Shown: positions 1,096 through 23,701, counted from the first letter of the stretch. The stretch: DNA of 37,189 nt from Desulfobacteraceae bacterium (GCA_041310895.1 JBFYWT010000014.1:1-37189); one strand, 5' to 3'. Notes: generated from the letters alone by a model not told the origin. Made by a program: numbers and translations.

Positions 1096-1692
1096 CTATT
1101 TTTCAAGTTTCACAGAAACTGGGACGGCTCTTGTGATTGTGTCGAATACCGGAGAATAAGTAGGCCCGAGCTGGACAATCTCTTCAAGCTTTTCATCCGG
1201 GGCATCGGCATCGATCTTGAAAAACATCCTGATCTCTTTATAGCCCCGTGGTACCTCTTTGGATAGCCCCAGAAATCCCTGAAGATCGATATCTCCCTCC
1301 AGTCTGGATTCCACCGAATTCAATTTAATACCCTTGGCCGCTGCATGGTAGACGATCGAGGTGGTCACACATGCTGCAAGGGCGGTAAGGGCATACTCCA
1401 CCGGGTTTGGGCCGATATCCTCTCCCAACAGCAAAGGCGGTTCATCCGCATCCAGTTCAAACGGTTTATTGTGTGGGTTGTCCTTTTGGGCACCATAAAA
1501 GTTTTTAATGTATGTGCGGTTATGTCCGCCTTTGAACCATTTGTTGTTGGCTTTAAACTTGAACGTTGCAATTACAGGTGTACTTTTAATGGCATCTATT
1601 GTTTCGAACAGTTTATCCACGTCAACTCCGTTTACGGGCTCTCGGCTTTTAATTTTTTCGGCTGTCTGTTTCATAATATTCTTTCCTTTCAT
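1096..1692 (-). CDS. OsmC family protein (extended N-terminus)
   Basis: 198-aa ORF. GPNPVEYALTALAACVTTSIVYHAAAKGI and the C-terminal PVFDTI resemble the OsmC/Ohr-like fold. The alternative ATG at 1674 has a better AAGGAAAG SD. The gene is clearly AT-richer than the rest of the window. Confidence 0.8.
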   Translation of the reverse strand: MKGKNIMKQTAEKIKSREPVNGVDVDKLFETIDAIKSTPVIATFKFKANNKWFKGGHNRTYIKNFYGAQKDNPHNKPFELDADEPPLLLGEDIGPNPVEYALTALAACVTTSIVYHAAAKGIKLNSVESRLEGDIDLQGFLGLSKEVPRGYKEIRMFFKIDADAPDEKLEEIVQLGPTYSPVFDTITRAVPVSVKLEK

Positions 1693-17310: not shown

Positions 17311-17967
17311 TCACTTCCTGACGAGCTCCTGCAGGGTCCGCTGGGCGCACTCCGGGCAGTAGCTGGAGGTGATGTCCAGCCGGGCGCGTTCGTGGATGAA
17401 CTGCTCCACGGGCACCCAGGGCCCGCGTCCCGGCTCCTTGCCGGTGTCGTCCCGAATCTTCTTGCAGACGCAGCACATCGGCAGGATCTTTTGGTAGAAG
17501 GAGATGCGGCGCGTGAGTTCCAGCCGTTCCAGGCAGCGCTCCACGCGGAAGAAGACCTCGGCGGACTCGCAGGGTTTGAGCAGGTAATCGTCAGCCTGGG
17601 ACTGGAGCGCCTCGATGGCGGAGAGCATGTCGCCGAATCCGGTCAGGATGATGACCATGACGGTGGCGTCGATTTCCTTCGAACGCTTGAGGACCTGGAT
17701 CCCGTCGGTCCGCTCCATGACGAGATCCGTGATGACCAGGTCGAAGGGGGCGTTCTGCAGCAGCGTGATCGCCATCTCGCCGCTGTTCGCCCGGGTGACA
17801 CGGTAGCCCCGGTTTTCGAGCTCCTCCCCGATCCCCTCCAGAATGAAGGGGTCGTCGTCCACCAGCAGCACGTTGTAGGGCTTTATCGGGTTGCGGCGTT
17901 CACCGTGCGGTGAGGCCTGGCTGCCGGCCTGCGTCGCCCCTCCGGCCGTTTTTGCGCGCTCTTCCAT
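17311..17967 (-). CDS. response regulator (receiver domain) with Cys-rich C-terminal tail
   Basis: Receiver motifs VLLVDDD, LVITDL, ILTG and KP. The tail is CCVCKKIRDD...W.PVEQFI......SSYCPECA. The start at MEERAK (ATG 17967) has a GGAGGTGGGAAGG SD; the upstream ATG 18009 lacks one. Confidence 0.85.
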   Translation of the reverse strand: MEERAKTAGGATQAGSQASPHGERRNPIKPYNVLLVDDDPFILEGIGEELENRGYRVTRANSGEMAITLLQNAPFDLVITDLVMERTDGIQVLKRSKEIDATVMVIILTGFGDMLSAIEALQSQADDYLLKPCESAEVFFRVERCLERLELTRRISFYQKILPMCCVCKKIRDDTGKEPGRGPWVPVEQFIHERARLDITSSYCPECAQRTLQELVRK

Positions 17968-18029
17968 GAACGCCTTCCCACCTCCGGTTGTCGGGCACCC
18001 CGCCGTCATTTACGATTCATGTGCCGATC

Positions 18030-21000
18030 TTAGCGTGTTTCCTTCACGGCCGCAACGATGAACTCGGCGACCTTTTCGGCCGAACGGCCGTAGAGCTCGT
18101 CGATGGCCACCCGGTCCAGCAAGCCGTCGCTCCAGGGGATGCTGTTTTCTTGAACGATGTTTTTGATGTTTTCGAATTTGCCGCCCAGGGCCCGGATCCT
18201 GGCCTCCAGGGGCACGCGCACTTGAAAGACGATGTGCAGCAGGAGCAGGTGCTCGATGCGGTTCGGCCGGGAAGGGGCGGAGGCCATCAGGGGGATCACG
18301 AGGATGCTGCGGTCGTCCTTGCGACCCTTGCCGATATAGACGTTGCCGTCCCGGACGATGATGCGCTTGGTGCCCTTCAGGGCCGGGTCGGATTCCACCC
18401 GGGAGGGGAGGGTGCGGGTGTCGCCGCGCTTGTTCACCACCTCGATCGTGGTGCCCTCGTCGGGTTCTCCCAGGACGCTCAAACCGACGATGCGGTAGAG
18501 GATCGACCCCTGGATCTCGCGCACGACCGCCTGCAGGTTCTTCAGCACCGCGACGTTGGAGGGGATGAGCTGGGCGGGCGAGAAGTGTTCCGCCGCCAGG
18601 GCCGTGAAGAGCAGCCCGTCAGGCTCTTCGCTGATGCGGCTGGTGCCGACGGTGACGGTTTTGGCCTGGTGCTTGATGGCGTCCACGGGGCGGGCGAGAA
18701 ACCCGATGGCATGGCCCAGATGCTCGAAGAGCACGGCGAGCATGTTGGCGGCGGTTCCCTGCCGGCCGAAGTCGAGGTCGAAATCCGCAGCCGGCAGCCG
18801 ACCCGACAGGTATTTGAGGAGCAGGGTGAGGTCGGAGCTGGCGTCATAGCCGACCGTGACCGGAAATTGCCTCTGGCTGCGTTTGCGCCGGAAGTCGGCG
18901 TAGAATTCGGCAATTTTCTCGCGGAACCCCTTTTCCAGGATCAGCTCGAAGAGATCCACCCCCCGGCGGGCCGCGCCGCCGACCGCCTGCTGGAGCTCCT
19001 CGTGAAAGCGGAAAAGAAACCGCGACCCCTCGTGGATGGAGAGGGCGGCGTAATATCCCCAGAGGTGCCCGGCGAGGGTGTTCAGGATCGGGGCCAGATG
19101 CTCGGCGACCACCGGCACCTGGAAAAGGTCCGCGGCGTAGGGGGCGAAGCGCTCCTCGCCTTCGTTGCAGATCACGACCGGCGTGGCCTTGTGCGCTTTG
19201 AAGATGGCGGTGTCCTTCACGATGTCGCCGATCACGGTCGGCCGCGCCCCGGCGGCGCAGACGATGATAAGCGGCTCGGAGGAGAGGTCGATGTGCTTCT
19301 TGTCTTCCACGTAGTCCGAAGAGATGGTCTTGTAGCAGAGCTCGCTCAGCTTGATGCGGATCTCATCGGCCGAAGCCTTGTTGGGGCCGCTGCCGACGAC
19401 CGCCCAGAACGTTTTGGTGACGGCCAGCCGCCGGGCGGATGCCTCCAGCCGCTCCGAAAGAGCGAGGACCCGGCGCATCTGGCCCGGCAGGTCGAGCAGC
19501 CGCCGGATCTCGTCGGAAACGAACGCCTCGTCGCGGCGGCCTTTCAATCGGGCGATGTGCAGCCCCAGCAGCGCCCCGGCGGTGATCTGGGCGTAGAAGG
19601 CCTTGGTGGAGGCGACCGACATCTCGATGTCGCGGCCGCTGCTGGTGTAGAGCACCCCGTCCACCTTGTAGGTCAGGTCCGAGTCCCGGCGGTTCACAAT
19701 GGCGAGGGTTCGGGCTCCCCGCTCCCTCACCATGTCGACCGAGCGGTTGGTATCGGTCGTGGTACCGGACTGGCTGATGGCGACGACCAGGGCGTCCGCC
19801 ATGGAGTCGCGGCCGGCGGCGGCGTCGAGGGTGAACCCGCTGAACTCCGAGGCCTTGAGCGCCTGGACCTGGATGGCCGGGCTGTTCAAATAGTGCTGCA
19901 GGATGTTGGCGCAGGCGAGGGCGGCGACACCGGCCGTGCCCTGGCCGATGAAGAAGATCCGCCGGATGGCCCCTTCGGCGAGGGCGCGGTTGACCGCGGG
20001 CGGCACCGCCTTCGCATCGAGCGCCGTAACGAACCCGCCGGTCCCGCCCTCGGCCACCTTCCAGCGGTTGCGCAGGGTCTTCTCGACCGAGGCCGGGGAC
20101 TCGGAGACTTCCTTGAGAAAATAGTGCGGGAAGTGCTGGCGGTCGATGTCGCGCGAGGTGAGTTCGGTGTGCGTGAGCTTGGAATCGCCCAGCGCGACAG
20201 GTGTCCCGTCGTAGCGCATGGCCGTAATGCCGCTCAGCCCGCCCGGTGAGAGCTGGTCCAGGACGACGATCTGCCCTTGGGTTTTTCCGGAGGCCCCCTC
20301 CACGACCGACTCCCCGTCGAGCCGGATGCAGGTGGAGGTCTCCTCGATGAGCCCGTAGACCTCCGAGGTGGCCATGTAGAGGTCCGGAGTGATGCCGACG
20401 AAGATGGCCTGGCCGCTGCCGCGCTGGGCAAGGAAGAGCTTGCCGGGCGCCAGGCTCGTGTGCATGGCAATGGCGTGGGAGCCGGCGAAGTCGTTGACCG
20501 CCCGCCGGAAGGCCTCGGCCACCTCGAAGCCCTGCCGCAGGTAGTGATCGACCTGGAGCGGGATGATTTTGGTGTCGGTCGTGACGTCCGCCGAGATGCG
20601 CCCGCCGCGTTGTTCGAAGGCCGCCTTGAGCGCGTGAAAATTGTCGATGTCGCCGTTCAGGCAGGCGTGGATGATACCGATGTCGCCGGCCACCCCCGCC
20701 TCGACGCGGTTGTCGACCGGGTGGCAGTTGGCCTCGGTGATGGCCCCGACCGACGCCCAGCGCGTGTGCGCGTTGACCGTGTGGAACACGAGCGGGAAGG
20801 CGACGATGGCCTGCAGGACGGGGTCCCCCGCGATGGCACGCCGCAGGGCGCGGATATTGTCCCCCAGGCTGCCGATCTCCACCGCCACCTTGTAAGTGAA
20901 GGCGACGGCGACCACGGCCCCGTGGCGGTGAACCGCGATGGAGTCGTTGAGCAGCGGCTGCCGGTCCAGGCGGCGGGTGAAATCGGCCATGGCGCCGCCC

Positions 21001-21764
21001 CGTTCGAGGGCGGCGCTGAAATGCTCGTAGTCGGAGGAGTGCAGGACGAAGAGCAGCGAGATCCCGGCCGAGTCGCGGCCGCGCACCTCCATGCGGTCGA
21101 TGCTGTTCAGCACCGAGTTGATGCCGCGGAAGACGCGCACGGTCTGCTCGGAACGGCCGGCCCCGATGCTGAGATCAGCCACCCGGGCGATGTTGCCCAG
21201 CACCTCGGTGCGCAGGCACCAGACGGCGTCCTTGAGCTGTTCGATGCGGCCGCTCACCGTGTCGGTTTCGACCACGCCGAGCCGGCCGACCTGCTCCTCG
21301 AAGCAGCCCGCTTCCACGCTCTGGCATGTGGCCAAAGCGGAGGCCAGGTCGTCGAGTCGCGCCTGGAGGGCGGGGTCCGCATAGATGCGGGCAAAGGCAT
21401 CCGGGCGCCGGAGCTCCCGGGCTTGCCGGACCAGTTCGAGCATGCACGTTTCTCCGCCCAGATAGGCCTCGGAGAGTCCCTTGGCCTGGGCGCGGCAGGC
21501 CTCGAAGCCGTGGGCGCGGACGCGCTCCGCCAGCGCGGCCAGCGGGGCGACCGGCGCCTCCGCGGCCTCGGGTGCCGCGCGTTTGAAGGCCACGATGCCG
21601 GCGATGCCGCAGCCAAGCAGGGTGGCTCTGAGCGGCGCCACCACCACCGCCCCCGCCGGGACAGAGGCGAGGCGGCGGCCGAAGTAGACCGGGGCGTTCA
21701 ATCGGCGGGTCGCGATGGTCACGATCTGCTTTAGTCGTCGGATGAATGGGCGAACCATGCGCAT
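18030..21764 (-). CDS. giant GlmS-like glutamine amidotransferase (class II GATase + two SIS domains) with insertions and C-terminal extension
   Basis: 1244-aa ORF. GATase motifs are CGIAGIV (Cys52), RGRDSAG, HTRWASVG, NGDIDN and TTDTK. SIS1 is FIGQGTAG...ISQSGTTTDT. SIS2 is VVGSGPNKASADEIRIKLSE...EDKKHI. A GlmS-type tail, PVDAIKHQAKTVTVG, is followed by ~190 further residues. Confidence 0.8.
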   Translation of the reverse strand: MRMVRPFIRRLKQIVTIATRRLNAPVYFGRRLASVPAGAVVVAPLRATLLGCGIAGIVAFKRAAPEAAEAPVAPLAALAERVRAHGFEACRAQAKGLSEAYLGGETCMLELVRQARELRRPDAFARIYADPALQARLDDLASALATCQSVEAGCFEEQVGRLGVVETDTVSGRIEQLKDAVWCLRTEVLGNIARVADLSIGAGRSEQTVRVFRGINSVLNSIDRMEVRGRDSAGISLLFVLHSSDYEHFSAALERGGAMADFTRRLDRQPLLNDSIAVHRHGAVVAVAFTYKVAVEIGSLGDNIRALRRAIAGDPVLQAIVAFPLVFHTVNAHTRWASVGAITEANCHPVDNRVEAGVAGDIGIIHACLNGDIDNFHALKAAFEQRGGRISADVTTDTKIIPLQVDHYLRQGFEVAEAFRRAVNDFAGSHAIAMHTSLAPGKLFLAQRGSGQAIFVGITPDLYMATSEVYGLIEETSTCIRLDGESVVEGASGKTQGQIVVLDQLSPGGLSGITAMRYDGTPVALGDSKLTHTELTSRDIDRQHFPHYFLKEVSESPASVEKTLRNRWKVAEGGTGGFVTALDAKAVPPAVNRALAEGAIRRIFFIGQGTAGVAALACANILQHYLNSPAIQVQALKASEFSGFTLDAAAGRDSMADALVVAISQSGTTTDTNRSVDMVRERGARTLAIVNRRDSDLTYKVDGVLYTSSGRDIEMSVASTKAFYAQITAGALLGLHIARLKGRRDEAFVSDEIRRLLDLPGQMRRVLALSERLEASARRLAVTKTFWAVVGSGPNKASADEIRIKLSELCYKTISSDYVEDKKHIDLSSEPLIIVCAAGARPTVIGDIVKDTAIFKAHKATPVVICNEGEERFAPYAADLFQVPVVAEHLAPILNTLAGHLWGYYAALSIHEGSRFLFRFHEELQQAVGGAARRGVDLFELILEKGFREKIAEFYADFRRKRSQRQFPVTVGYDASSDLTLLLKYLSGRLPAADFDLDFGRQGTAANMLAVLFEHLGHAIGFLARPVDAIKHQAKTVTVGTSRISEEPDGLLFTALAAEHFSPAQLIPSNVAVLKNLQAVVREIQGSILYRIVGLSVLGEPDEGTTIEVVNKRGDTRTLPSRVESDPALKGTKRIIVRDGNVYIGKGRKDDRSILVIPLMASAPSRPNRIEHLLLLHIVFQVRVPLEARIRALGGKFENIKNIVQENSIPWSDGLLDRVAIDELYGRSAEKVAEFIVAAVKETR

Positions 21765-21784: not shown

Positions 21785-23701
21785 CTATCGCAGTGCCGTT
21801 CCCGGGGCAACGGCGGCGTCCGGTCCGATCAGCACGGGACCGCCCTCCGCCCCGGCGGCCAGCAGCATGCCTTGGGAGATCACCCCCATGAGTTTCGCCG
21901 GCCGCAGGTTGGCGATGACGACGACCTGCCGGCCGACCAGGCTCTCGGGTGAATAGTGTTCGGCGATGCCGGCCACGATGGTGCGGCGCTCGCCGAGGTC
22001 GATTTCCAGCTGAAGCAGCTTTTTGGCCTTCGGCACCGGGGTGGCGCTGAGGACGGTGGCGATCCGCAGGTCGATCCGCTGGAAATCCTCCAACGTAATT
22101 TCAGGTTTGATCGCGAGCGCCCCCGCAGGCGGCGGGGTTCCGGGGGCTGCCGCGGCCGGGGCAGGGTCGGTCTCGATGCGGGGGAAGAGCATGACCGTCT
22201 TGGGCAGGCCGGTGCCGGCCGGAACCGAGGCCCAGCGTTTTAAATCCTGCAGGTCATAGAACGGGGTCTCCGGATCGAGGCCGAGGTGCTTCTGCATGCG
22301 GGCGGCTGTTTCCGGCATGACCGGGTAGATCAGGCCGGAGATGAGCCGCAGGCCCTTCAAGAGGCTGTGCATGACCGCCTCGAGCTGCTTGCGGGTGCTC
22401 TTCTTCTTGGCGAGCTCCCAAGGGGCGGCGATGTCCACGGCCCGGTTCATCCGGCCGATGAACTCCCATACGGCGGCCAGCGCCCGATGGAGCTCGAAGA
22501 GCCCCATGGCGCGTTCGTATACCTCAATCGTCCGCCGGGCCTCGGGCGCGAGCCCCAGGCCGTACTGGCGGCCCACCGCGGGGTCCAGCTCCGGGACGAC
22601 CCCCTCGAAGTACTTGTGGGCCATGGCGACCACGCGCGAGAAGAGGTTGCCGAGGTCGTTGGCGAGATCGGAATTGATCCGCTGCACCATGGCGGACTCG
22701 CTGAAGTTGGCGTCCAGTCCGAAGGTCATCTCCCGGATCAGGAAGTAGCGAAAGGCGTCCAGCCCGTAGACGTTGCGCATCTCGAGCGGCTCGATGACGT
22801 TGCCGAGGCTCTTGGACATCTTGCGCTGCTCGATGTTCCAGTAGCCGTGCACGTTCAGGTGCTGGTAAACCGGAATGCCGGCCGCCTGCAGCATGCAGGG
22901 CCAGTAGATGCCATGGGGCTTGAGAATGTCCTTGGCGACGATGTGCTGGGCCACCGGCCAGAATCGGTGGAACAGCTCGCCGTCCGGGTAGCCGAGGGCC
23001 GAGACGTAGTTGAGCAGGGCGTCGAACCAGACATAGGTGACGTAGCGATCGTCGAAGGGCAGCGGGATGCCCCAGGTGAGCCGGCTCGTGGGGCGCGAAA
23101 TGCACAGGTCCCCGAGCGGCTCGCGCAGGAAGGCGAGCACTTCGTTGCGGTAGCGCTCCGGGCGGATGAAATCCGGGTGGCGCTGGATGTGGTCGATCAA
23201 CCAGCCCTGGTAGCGGCTCATCCGGAAAAAATAGTTCGACTCCCGGATGAGCTCGGGTTCGGACTCATGAATCGGGCAGCGCCCCTCCTGCAGCTCGCGC
23301 TCGGTGTAGAAGCGTTCGCAGCCGAAGCAGTAGAGCCCCTCGTACTCGCTGAAGTAGATGTCTCCGGCCGCGTGGATCTTGCGCAGCACCGCGGTGACGA
23401 CGGCCATGTGGTCGGGGTCGGTCGTGCGGATGAAGCGGTCGGGCCGGACGTTCAACTCCGGCCAGAGCTCGCGAAACAGCCGGCTGATCTCGTCGACGTA
23501 CACCCGCGGGCTTTGGCCCTGTTTCTGCGCGGCCTGAACCACCTTGTCCCCGTGCTCGTCGGTACCGGTCAGAAAGAAGGTCTCGCGGTCACGCATCGCG
23601 TGGAAACGGCGCACCACATCGGCCACAATGGTGGTGTAGGCATGGCCGAGGTGGGGCCGGGCGTTGACGTAATAAATCGGGGTGGTGATGTAGAAGGCCA
23701 T
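21785..23701 (-). CDS. metG: methionine--tRNA ligase with C-terminal tRNA-binding (Trbp111/EMAPII-like) domain
   Basis: MAFYITTPIYYVNARPHLGHAYTT (HIGH-type HLGH), KMSKS, a zinc knuckle CFGCERF...CPIHE, and a C-terminal IDLRIATVLSA...LQLEIDLG OB-fold domain. Confidence 0.95.
   Translation of the reverse strand: MAFYITTPIYYVNARPHLGHAYTTIVADVVRRFHAMRDRETFFLTGTDEHGDKVVQAAQKQGQSPRVYVDEISRLFRELWPELNVRPDRFIRTTDPDHMAVVTAVLRKIHAAGDIYFSEYEGLYCFGCERFYTERELQEGRCPIHESEPELIRESNYFFRMSRYQGWLIDHIQRHPDFIRPERYRNEVLAFLREPLGDLCISRPTSRLTWGIPLPFDDRYVTYVWFDALLNYVSALGYPDGELFHRFWPVAQHIVAKDILKPHGIYWPCMLQAAGIPVYQHLNVHGYWNIEQRKMSKSLGNVIEPLEMRNVYGLDAFRYFLIREMTFGLDANFSESAMVQRINSDLANDLGNLFSRVVAMAHKYFEGVVPELDPAVGRQYGLGLAPEARRTIEVYERAMGLFELHRALAAVWEFIGRMNRAVDIAAPWELAKKKSTRKQLEAVMHSLLKGLRLISGLIYPVMPETAARMQKHLGLDPETPFYDLQDLKRWASVPAGTGLPKTVMLFPRIETDPAPAAAAPGTPPPAGALAIKPEITLEDFQRIDLRIATVLSATPVPKAKKLLQLEIDLGERRTIVAGIAEHYSPESLVGRQVVVIANLRPAKLMGVISQGMLLAAGAEGGPVLIGPDAAVAPGTALR

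Follow-up and report, generated by a model that had tools for sequence, protein, structure and literature searches.

A long-form GlmS with a putative propeptide in the Desulfobacterales

GlmS, the synthase that makes glucosamine-6-phosphate (GlcN6P), is the essential and heavily regulated entry to peptidoglycan, lipopolysaccharide (LPS), and other amino-sugar polymers, and is an antibiotic target. In the bacterial enzymes (EC 2.6.1.16; E. coli GlmS, PDB 1jxa, 2j6h, 3ooj, and 4amv) a glutaminase domain of the N-terminal nucleophile (Ntn) type is followed by a two-SIS isomerase domain, and the tail that carries Lys603 is the free C-terminus of the protein; in the structures of Teplyakov and Mouilleron the C-terminal decapeptide of the E. 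coli enzyme reportedly folds over the sugar site as a lid and makes the ammonia channel complete. The gene described here, a long-form glmS, is located at 18030-21764 on the minus strand of a stretch of 37,189 nucleotides from Desulfobacteraceae bacterium (GCA_041310895.1 JBFYWT010000014.1:1-37189), which as a whole is called the window. Its predicted product shares with bacterial GlmS the domain order, the catalytic, channel, and sugar-phosphate residues, the tail of the K603 type, and apparently the genomic role of sole GlcN6P source for GlmM. In contrast to canonical GlmS, the long form adds a leader before the nucleophile cysteine, two inserts (A and C), and a domain of about 200 amino acids (aa) after the tail.

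A nucleophile cysteine that is internal in the primary product, as in the long-form GlmS, is found in PurF of B. subtilis and vertebrates and in GltB, the large subunit of glutamate synthase, for example that of E. coli, with a propeptide of 11 aa in B. subtilis PurF and of about 36-42 aa in GltB. These propeptides are short and poorly conserved, whereas the leader of the long-form GlmS has about 50-60 aa, an invariant proline, and a conserved strand; no description of a propeptide-bearing GlmS, nor anything relevant to a long one, was found in the literature. In general, the N-terminal Cys of class II amidotransferases (MEROPS C44) is preceded by a few residues that are autocatalytically cleaved, and catalysis relies on the free alpha-amine of Cys1 as its base (PMC9140057).

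The eukaryotic GFAT1 and GFAT2 (PDB 6r4e) are GlmS orthologues with built-in regulation, as is proposed for the long form; they carry an insertion in the glutaminase domain and are subject to feedback inhibition by UDP-N-acetylglucosamine (UDP-GlcNAc), and GFAT1 matches the N-terminal model of the long form structurally. However, the GFAT insertion is located elsewhere and is much smaller, GFAT has neither a leader nor a C-terminal add-on, and it shows no specific sequence kinship to the long form. Possible functional analogues are GlmR (YvcK), by which GlmS is controlled in B. subtilis, the glmS ribozyme, and GlmY/GlmZ, all of which tune GlcN6P synthesis to UDP-GlcNAc or GlcN6P (PMC7525490, PMC4908143). 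These regulators act in trans or on RNA, while in the long form a candidate regulator would be fused beside the catalytic lid. In comparison to these systems the chemistry is known; the architecture, the putative pro-segment, and the lineage-wide replacement are new to the literature found. The account considered likely as a whole is that the long form is the only GlcN6P synthase of the organism, that it is made as a proenzyme and then follows ordinary GlmS chemistry, and that its extra modules are regulatory.

Family membership and genomic role

The metagenome-assembled genome (MAG) that contains the window belongs to the Desulfobacterales (65% G+C, 70% complete, 1.98 Mb, 243 contigs). The open reading frame (ORF) of the long-form glmS is free of stops and encodes 1244 aa from the first ATG, the numbering used here. 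A Shine-Dalgarno sequence, AAGGA, is located 7 nt ahead of the second ATG (21758, Met3), where the public gene call of long-form GlmS also starts, giving 1242 aa; because of this spacing and of the public call, the true product is probably the 1242-aa chain, in which the Cys is residue 50. The initial annotation, made from the sequence of the window alone, had assigned to this ORF a GlmS-like amidotransferase of 1244 aa and about twice the length of GlmS; the translation is the same, although 1242 aa is the likelier product, and E. coli GlmS has 609 aa. In public annotation such proteins are named "SIS domain-containing protein" or plain GlmS.

A Pfam scan places GATase_6 at residues 332-464 and one SIS domain at 601-733. 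The NCBIfam glmS model TIGR01135 aligns with its positions 64-588 to residues 327-908 at 230.4 bits, not reaching its cut-off of 418, and NF001484 scores 255 bits against a cut-off of 381; the long forms of relatives likewise score under the curated glmS cut-off. The closest solved structure is that of E. coli GlmS (3ooj, 2j6h, and 1jxa, with an E of 9e-27 for 3ooj). The comparison of residues is based on an alignment of 119 family members with E. coli GlmS (from MG1655) and on a second one in which canonical GlmS of the same phylum was also included, and conservation was counted in 78 species-level homologues. In the glutaminase domain C52 (Cys1 of E. coli), R228 (Arg26), D231, R335 (Arg73), W336 (Trp74), N370 (Asn98), G371 (Gly99), and D397 (Asp123) are invariant in 78/78, as are Q665 (Gln348), S666 (Ser349), and T669 (Thr352) of the sugar-phosphate loop and the isomerase residues K805 (Lys485), E808 (Glu488), H824 (His504), and K1035 (Lys603). 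The alignment thus reveals no loss of catalytic residues in the 78 homologues, save for S664 (Ser347), which is kept in 76 and is Thr in the other 2; T610 and the VASTKAF block are also invariant in the homologue alignment. Across the family, Thr76 of E. coli GlmS is replaced by Ser, His77 by Val, and Ser303 by Ala (Ala611).

The core of the long form has an identity of only 26-30% to canonical GlmS from E. coli and from the same phylum, while the canonical enzymes share 49-60% among themselves, and a rapidly built tree groups the long family as a single clade, set apart from canonical GlmS by a long branch. On sequence grounds, the long-form GlmS is an old, distinct, and deeply divergent version of a known enzyme.

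Five departures from canonical GlmS are recognized, namely the leader, insert A, about 45 additional aa in the glutaminase domain, insert C, and the C-terminal domain. The leader, an N-terminal extension that is a probable propeptide, comprises residues 1-51 (21612..21764, minus strand as for all the features of the gene) and is delimited by conservation, codon comparison, and AlphaFold2 (AF2). It is followed by the TGC codon of Cys52 (21609..21611), which corresponds in the alignment to Cys1 of E. coli GlmS, the Ntn nucleophile, and opens strand 1 of the glutaminase domain (residues 52-61). Insert A, a predicted helical bundle of about 145 aa (residues ~62-205, 21150..21581), is located between strand 1 and helix 1 of this domain, as indicated by the alignment with E. 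coli GlmS and by AF2. The remaining class II (Ntn) glutaminase with its linker extends over residues 206-540 (20145..21149; Pfam GATase_6/GATase_7 and Foldseek) and contains about 45 surplus residues at ~240-300 and small extra loops including 353-361. The two-SIS isomerase domain covers residues 541-908 (19041..20144; Pfam SIS, TIGR01135, and the match to 3ooj). Insert C, helical and of about 115 aa (residues 909-1022, 18699..19040; alignment and AF2), separates the last SIS helix from the catalytic C-tail ARPVDAIKHQAKTVTVGTSR (residues 1023-1045, 18630..18698), which aligns with LAKSVTVE of E. coli; almost all the columns of the tail are invariant and the amino acid differs in only 8% of codon pairs. 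The last module is an alpha/beta domain of about 200 aa (residues 1046-1244, 18033..18629), for which AF2 predicts a PAS-like topology followed by helices. Canonical GlmS has its Cys directly behind the initiator Met and ends freely with the K603 tail; in the long form, by contrast, the Cys has 51 (or 49) residues ahead of it and the AKTVTVG tail has 204 after it.

This architecture agrees in most points with the initial annotation, which had proposed a GlmS-type Ntn amidotransferase with all the glutaminase motifs and a GlmS-like tail. The catalytic set is in fact intact, and each motif is found at the position given for it (CGIAGIV 52-58, RGRDSAG 228-234, HTRWASVG 333-340, NGDIDN 370-375, TTDTK 395-399, and AKTVTVG 1034-1040). 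The insertion of about 150 aa described between the first strand and RGRDSAG is insert A, and both SIS domains are recovered by alignment, Pfam itself finding the one at 601-733. Of the add-ons, the insertion and the C-terminal domain, estimated at about 190 aa, stand; insert C had been missed.

Only two matches to the glmS model are present in the MAG, the long-form glmS and purF, the latter on another contig, and because this MAG is incomplete, its relatives were surveyed. Among 41 genomes of the same order the long form alone is present in 37, canonical GlmS alone in 1, and neither in 3. In a phylum sample of 251 genomes, all except the MAG itself at least 90% complete, the search with the glmS model was compared with a search for the C-terminal third of the long form. 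The long form is encoded in 25 of the 251 genomes, each time as the single glmS-model match (E 1e-52 to 1e-71); canonical glmS exceeds the cut-off in 216 and is fragmented in 2, giving 218 genomes with the canonical form only. The long-form C-terminal region is found in none of the 216 genomes with canonical glmS, and the two forms occur together in none of the 251 genomes. In closed genomes of the order, no further GlmS-type gene is found down to an E of 1e-3, the only matches being purF and weak amidotransferase/SIS matches. Moreover, glmM, whose product consumes GlcN6P, is found over the cut-off in 7/7 genomes including the MAG (contig C40), and nagB is absent in the 7/7 genomes tested, the MAG included. 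Because it is the sole form, never occurs together with the canonical one, and is accompanied by glmM in the absence of nagB, the long form is, as judged from genome content, the housekeeping GlcN6P synthase of the organism, replacing canonical GlmS in the order and in some neighbouring lineages.

The Desulfobacterales, environmentally dominant sulfate reducers, and several neighbouring lineages would therefore rely on a GlmS of double length. The family needs an annotation model of its own, since it fails the curated glmS cut-off though it is the only GlmS present, and metabolic reconstructions based on this cut-off could wrongly score such genomes as lacking GlcN6P synthesis. As a separate observation, the single genome of the order with canonical glmS and without the long form carries the gene (G031:C301:2231-4054, 845 bits) on a 7.7-kb contig, which could be due to binning contamination or to a genuine replacement via gene transfer.

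The leader before the nucleophile cysteine

All the members of the clade have 50-60 residues before the Cys. The first ~20 residues of the leader (~4-21) form a basic, poorly conserved helix, while a conserved block extends from V26 to P44 (V-Y-F-G-R/K...V-P-x-G-S-I-V-F-F-P) and is followed by a linker of 7 residues to the Cys; P44 is conserved in 78/78 homologues, G29 in 74/78, and F43 in 73/78. The synonymous share of differing codon pairs is 33% for residues 22-51, 20% for insert A, and 46% for the glutaminase core, and on this codon pattern the leader is coding, with purifying selection on residues 22-51. The codon that adjoins the Cys on its N-terminal side, here GGC, is ATG, GTG, or TTG in 0/78 homologues, and the nearest in-frame GTGs upstream of it are codons 40-42. 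As the preceding codon is never a start, no alternative start can put a Met beside the Cys, and the earlier remark that the nucleophile is internal, with no start codon directly before it, holds for the whole set of homologues. Immediately ahead of the Cys the residue varies (C, G, F, A, N, or Y). In the AF2 model the leader has a helix at 4-21 and a strand at 40-44, and the pLDDT (predicted local distance difference test score) is below 50 at 49-56.

Other branches of the same family lack the leader. In three genomes of one family (f75) inserts A and C and the C-terminal domain are present in proteins of 1127-1157 aa, whose starts, TTG, TTG, and ATG, directly adjoin the Cys codon, a stop codon lying 2-13 codons upstream. 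In a library clustered at 50% identity, the 150 matches listed include about 52 full-length representatives (at least 1050 aa), of which about 37 begin with Met-Cys and about 12 carry a leader; some of these leaders have only 17-24 aa and still keep the F-P-x7-C spacing. In the tree the leader-bearing lineages are a basal grade within which a large Met-Cys clade is nested with 100% local support; on this topology the leader is probably ancestral and was then lost, or was gained two or three times. Since Met-Cys clades belong to the same long family, the leader appears dispensable for the mature enzyme, and an N-terminal Cys is the usual state in the family.

Because the leader is coding, no start precedes the Cys, sister lineages begin with Met-Cys, and the C44 chemistry is established, the leader is best read as a propeptide, most likely removed at the bond between residue 51 and Cys52; of the two options in the initial annotation, an autoprocessed propeptide and a glutaminase that works differently, this favours the former. 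As residues 22-51 are conserved and the spacing is fixed, the pro-segment seems to have a role in the precursor, for example in positioning the scissile bond or in keeping the enzyme inactive, and the leader may stay bound after cleavage. If processing takes place, propeptide-dependent activation would be extended to GlmS. Concerning other amidotransferases of the same MAG, the nucleophile Cys of purF (L002:1243-2883, contig C11; REA/CGIFGI) appears to lie behind a leader of ~18 residues if the start is the Met of MSLTHL, so that propeptide-type Ntn amidotransferases would not be unique to glmS in this organism.

Three other explanations of the leader were weighed against its removal. It might be cleaved and yet retained as a small subunit through strand 40-44, or be cleaved conditionally, which would make the enzyme a regulated zymogen; heterodimeric Ntn hydrolases that keep the alpha chain are in fact known, such as glycosylasparaginase, gamma-glutamyl transpeptidase, and cephalosporin acylase. 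The strand predicted by AF2, the better conservation of residues 22-51 in comparison to insert A, and the invariant P44 at a nearly constant P44-x7-Cys spacing, even in the leaders of 17-24 aa, agree with this possibility, which is nonetheless unlikely, because the large Met-Cys clades in the same family indicate a mature enzyme that needs no leader and, no class II amidotransferase is known to keep its pro-segment. It is decidedly unlikely that the leader is not removed at all, with an internal Cys that uses another general base, or with an inactive glutaminase and the amination of fructose-6-phosphate (Fru6P) by free ammonia. Such an enzyme would fit the length and conservation of the leader, the family-wide Ser and Val in place of T76 and H77 of E. 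coli GlmS, and the habitats of sulfate reducers, which can be ammonium-rich; however, the glutamine-binding, oxyanion-hole, and channel residues are all invariant, which would not be expected of an inactive glutaminase, most lineages of the family have the classical Ntn arrangement of Met-Cys, and enzymes of this class use the free alpha-amine of Cys1 as catalytic base (PMC9140057). Finally, it is extremely improbable that the leader is an annotation artefact, the true start being next to the Cys, or that it serves as a targeting or lipoprotein signal, even if LLGC at 49-52 resembles a lipobox and the first 21 residues are basic. An internal or mis-called start was rejected by inspection of starts and ribosome-binding sites and of the codon before the Cys, codon 51 never being a start in 78/78 and positions 22-51 having a coding-type synonymous pattern. 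A lipoprotein or export signal was rejected as well, since position -1 is often Cys (29) or Phe (7), unlike in a lipobox, the conserved charges R30 and R46 fall in the would-be hydrophobic core, and both substrates are cytoplasmic.

A further explanation concerns the whole protein, which could be a paralogue with another ketose-phosphate substrate or product and not the housekeeping GlmS; the initial annotation had likewise suggested that the substrate may not be Fru6P. The score under the glmS cut-off, the core identity of only 26-30% to canonical GlmS, the exchange of S303 to Ala, and the large inserts could be taken as signs of a different function. Nevertheless, a canonical glmS elsewhere, the search for which the initial annotation had recommended, is found neither in the MAG nor in the 25/25 long-form genomes sampled, and long and canonical forms never occur together; with glmM present and nagB absent, GlcN6P would have to come from the long form, and the sugar-phosphate, Schiff-base, and isomerase residues are invariant apart from the Thr at S664 in 2/78. 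Because the long form is the only glmS, the idea of another substrate is unsupported, and a side-paralogue, which is very improbable, was rejected by the mutual exclusion with canonical glmS, the presence of glmM without nagB, and the kept residues of the sugar site. Several observations nonetheless weigh against the account of a proenzyme with ordinary GlmS chemistry and regulatory modules. The glmS-model score is well below the curated cut-off (230 vs 418 bits) and S303 of E. coli GlmS is Ala611 across the whole family; the variable residue before the Cys leaves no recognisable cleavage motif, and AF2 is unconfident exactly around 49-56. In addition, the leader has ~5x the length of the PurF propeptide and, over residues 22-51, a degree of conservation unusual in a peptide that is discarded, the label PAS-like rests on topology and on Foldseek matches with an E of at least 0.05, and the tree was built by FastTree only.

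Extra modules and proposed control

Two AF2 models were calculated, one for residues 1-560 from 78 sequences (mean pLDDT 82.8) and one for residues 905-1244 (mean pLDDT 82.2). In the first model the glutaminase core has its best Foldseek match in the E. coli GlmS glutaminase 1xff (TM-score 0.77-0.79, E ~2e-9), followed by human GFAT1 and PurF, and insert A is composed of helices 72-84, 87-92, 97-103, 105-117, 121-129, 131-161, and 164-198, with a pLDDT mostly above 90. In the second model insert C is helical (pLDDT 81-88) and the C-tail, out of its context, is unstructured. The C-terminal domain is predicted to consist of two beta strands, three short helices, three beta strands, and then five helices (pLDDT 85-94), and the order of the strands (E1081-1093, E1106-1114, E1143-1146, E1153-1160, and E1170-1180) fits PAS. 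Its top Foldseek matches against PDB are LOV/PAS, Cache, and longin domains, all non-significant with an E of at least 0.05 and a TM-score of at most 0.4, and with low confidence the modelled domain can be described as PAS-like. Within the order it contains a conserved basic patch, SRVE.D..LKGTKRIIV..GNVYIGKGRKDDRS.

By codon comparison, insert C and the C-terminal domain are conserved to the same degree as the catalytic core. At an E of at most 10, Pfam has no match to the leader, to either insert (A or C), or to the C-terminal domain, and a profile of the C-terminal third against PDB sequences gave nothing meaningful. The profile of residues 905-1244 retrieved 516 proteins from 1.84 billion cluster representatives; among the matches listed, the region of the full-length ones is always at the C-terminus of GlmS-like proteins of ~1130-1260 aa, the others being fragments. 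Because the region is seen only at the C-terminal end of such proteins, the extra modules seem exclusive to the long family. In addition, a stretch of 62 aa in a 154-aa frame ~7 kb downstream of the long-form glmS of one genome (G029:C41:28427-28612) matches positions 263-324 of the C-terminal-region profile at an E of 4e-10 and could be either a fragment standing alone or a duplicated C-terminal domain.

The proposed mechanism starts with translation as a proenzyme with a leader of ~50 residues, which would be removed between X51 and Cys52; the likeliest route is intramolecular autoproteolysis, known from other class II amidotransferases. Cleavage would free the alpha-amino group of Cys52 to act as general base. 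Glutamine would then be hydrolysed at Cys52, and ammonia would pass the Trp336 gate to the SIS domain, where Fru6P would be aminated and isomerised under the tail with K1035. The C-tail would be anchored at either end, insert C preceding and the PAS-like domain following it, and for this reason a ligand bound at the C-terminal domain could gate the lid, opening or closing it. In this way the enzyme would contain its own allosteric control, for which other bacteria rely on the glmS ribozyme, the small RNAs GlmY/GlmZ, or GlmR; the regulatory role of the extra modules is, however, a weaker proposal than cleavage and chemistry. An allosteric sensor in the C-terminal domain would be a new control route for the supply of cell-wall precursors.

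A more elaborate form of this proposal, possible but doubtful, is a self-regulating GlmS whose PAS-like domain, on binding a metabolite of the pathway (for example UDP-GlcNAc or GlcN6P), moves the adjacent C-tail, while the leader provides control as a zymogen segment or as a retained propeptide. Such an enzyme would be a substitute at the protein level for riboswitch and small-RNA control and the first GlmS with a functional pro-segment.

Neighbouring genes and transcription

The window is a housekeeping region in which lptD, a NusG-like gene, holB, a PSP1 gene, metG, the long-form glmS, and a response regulator gene follow each other on the minus strand; pyrG and eno are located beyond the response regulator on the opposite strand, convergent toward it. 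The upstream metG (21785..23701, minus strand; Pfam tRNA-synt_1g, E 6.5e-100) ends 20 nt before the long-form glmS, and the order metG to long-form glmS is kept across the bacterial order. The response regulator gene (17311..18009, minus strand; receiver domain, Pfam Response_reg, E 4e-26), already recognized in the initial annotation as following on the same strand, is separated from glmS by 20 nt if the start is ATG 18009 and by 63 nt from the likelier ATG 17966, which lies behind GGAGG. It adjoins the long-form glmS in the closest relatives only; elsewhere in the order a GAF/sigma-54 activator or other genes intervene, or the fetched flank contains no such regulator. A functional coupling of the two genes is unsupported and was rejected, the adjacency limited to close relatives pointing to local synteny.

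A scan for promoters and terminators on the strand of the gene found no site in the metG-glmS and glmS-regulator gaps, the sole promoter-like match on this strand falling within the glmS ORF, and neither a glmS ribozyme nor any other Rfam family was found in the window. From the gap of 20 nt after metG, and from the lack of Rfam element, promoter, and terminator between the genes, it follows that the long-form glmS is probably co-transcribed with its housekeeping neighbours including metG, and that protein-level control is plausible.

The long-form glmS of one lineage (G038) lies head-to-head with glmM and a GlmU-acetyltransferase-like gene, a pair that was not found beside the long-form glmS in 80 other loci or in the window. 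GlmU is seemingly split in Desulfobacterales genomes (G038:C3:272260-274859, L099:1246-3857; G142:C1:698617-699723, L100:1118-2224) into a protein of ~250 aa with the uridyltransferase half only (E 1e-74 to 1e-81) and a separate one of 370-420 aa with the acetyltransferase half only (E ~1e-14); in G038 the gene for the latter sits between glmM and the divergent long-form glmS. Loci of the Desulfosarcina type (L074:1770-5852, L057:2158-5888), the first of them from the cultured Desulfosarcina alkanivorans PL12 (NZ_AP021874), contain, between metG and the long-form glmS, genes for a penicillin-binding protein (PBP) transpeptidase, a DegT/DnrJ-type sugar aminotransferase, and a protein similar to Fe-dependent alcohol dehydrogenase (Fe-ADH), a neighbourhood with a cell-envelope flavour. 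At the other end of the window, positions 1-2000 have a G+C content of 48%, in comparison to 59-70% across the remainder, and include an OsmC-like gene (1096-1692, minus strand) and the end of a gene for a TPR protein.

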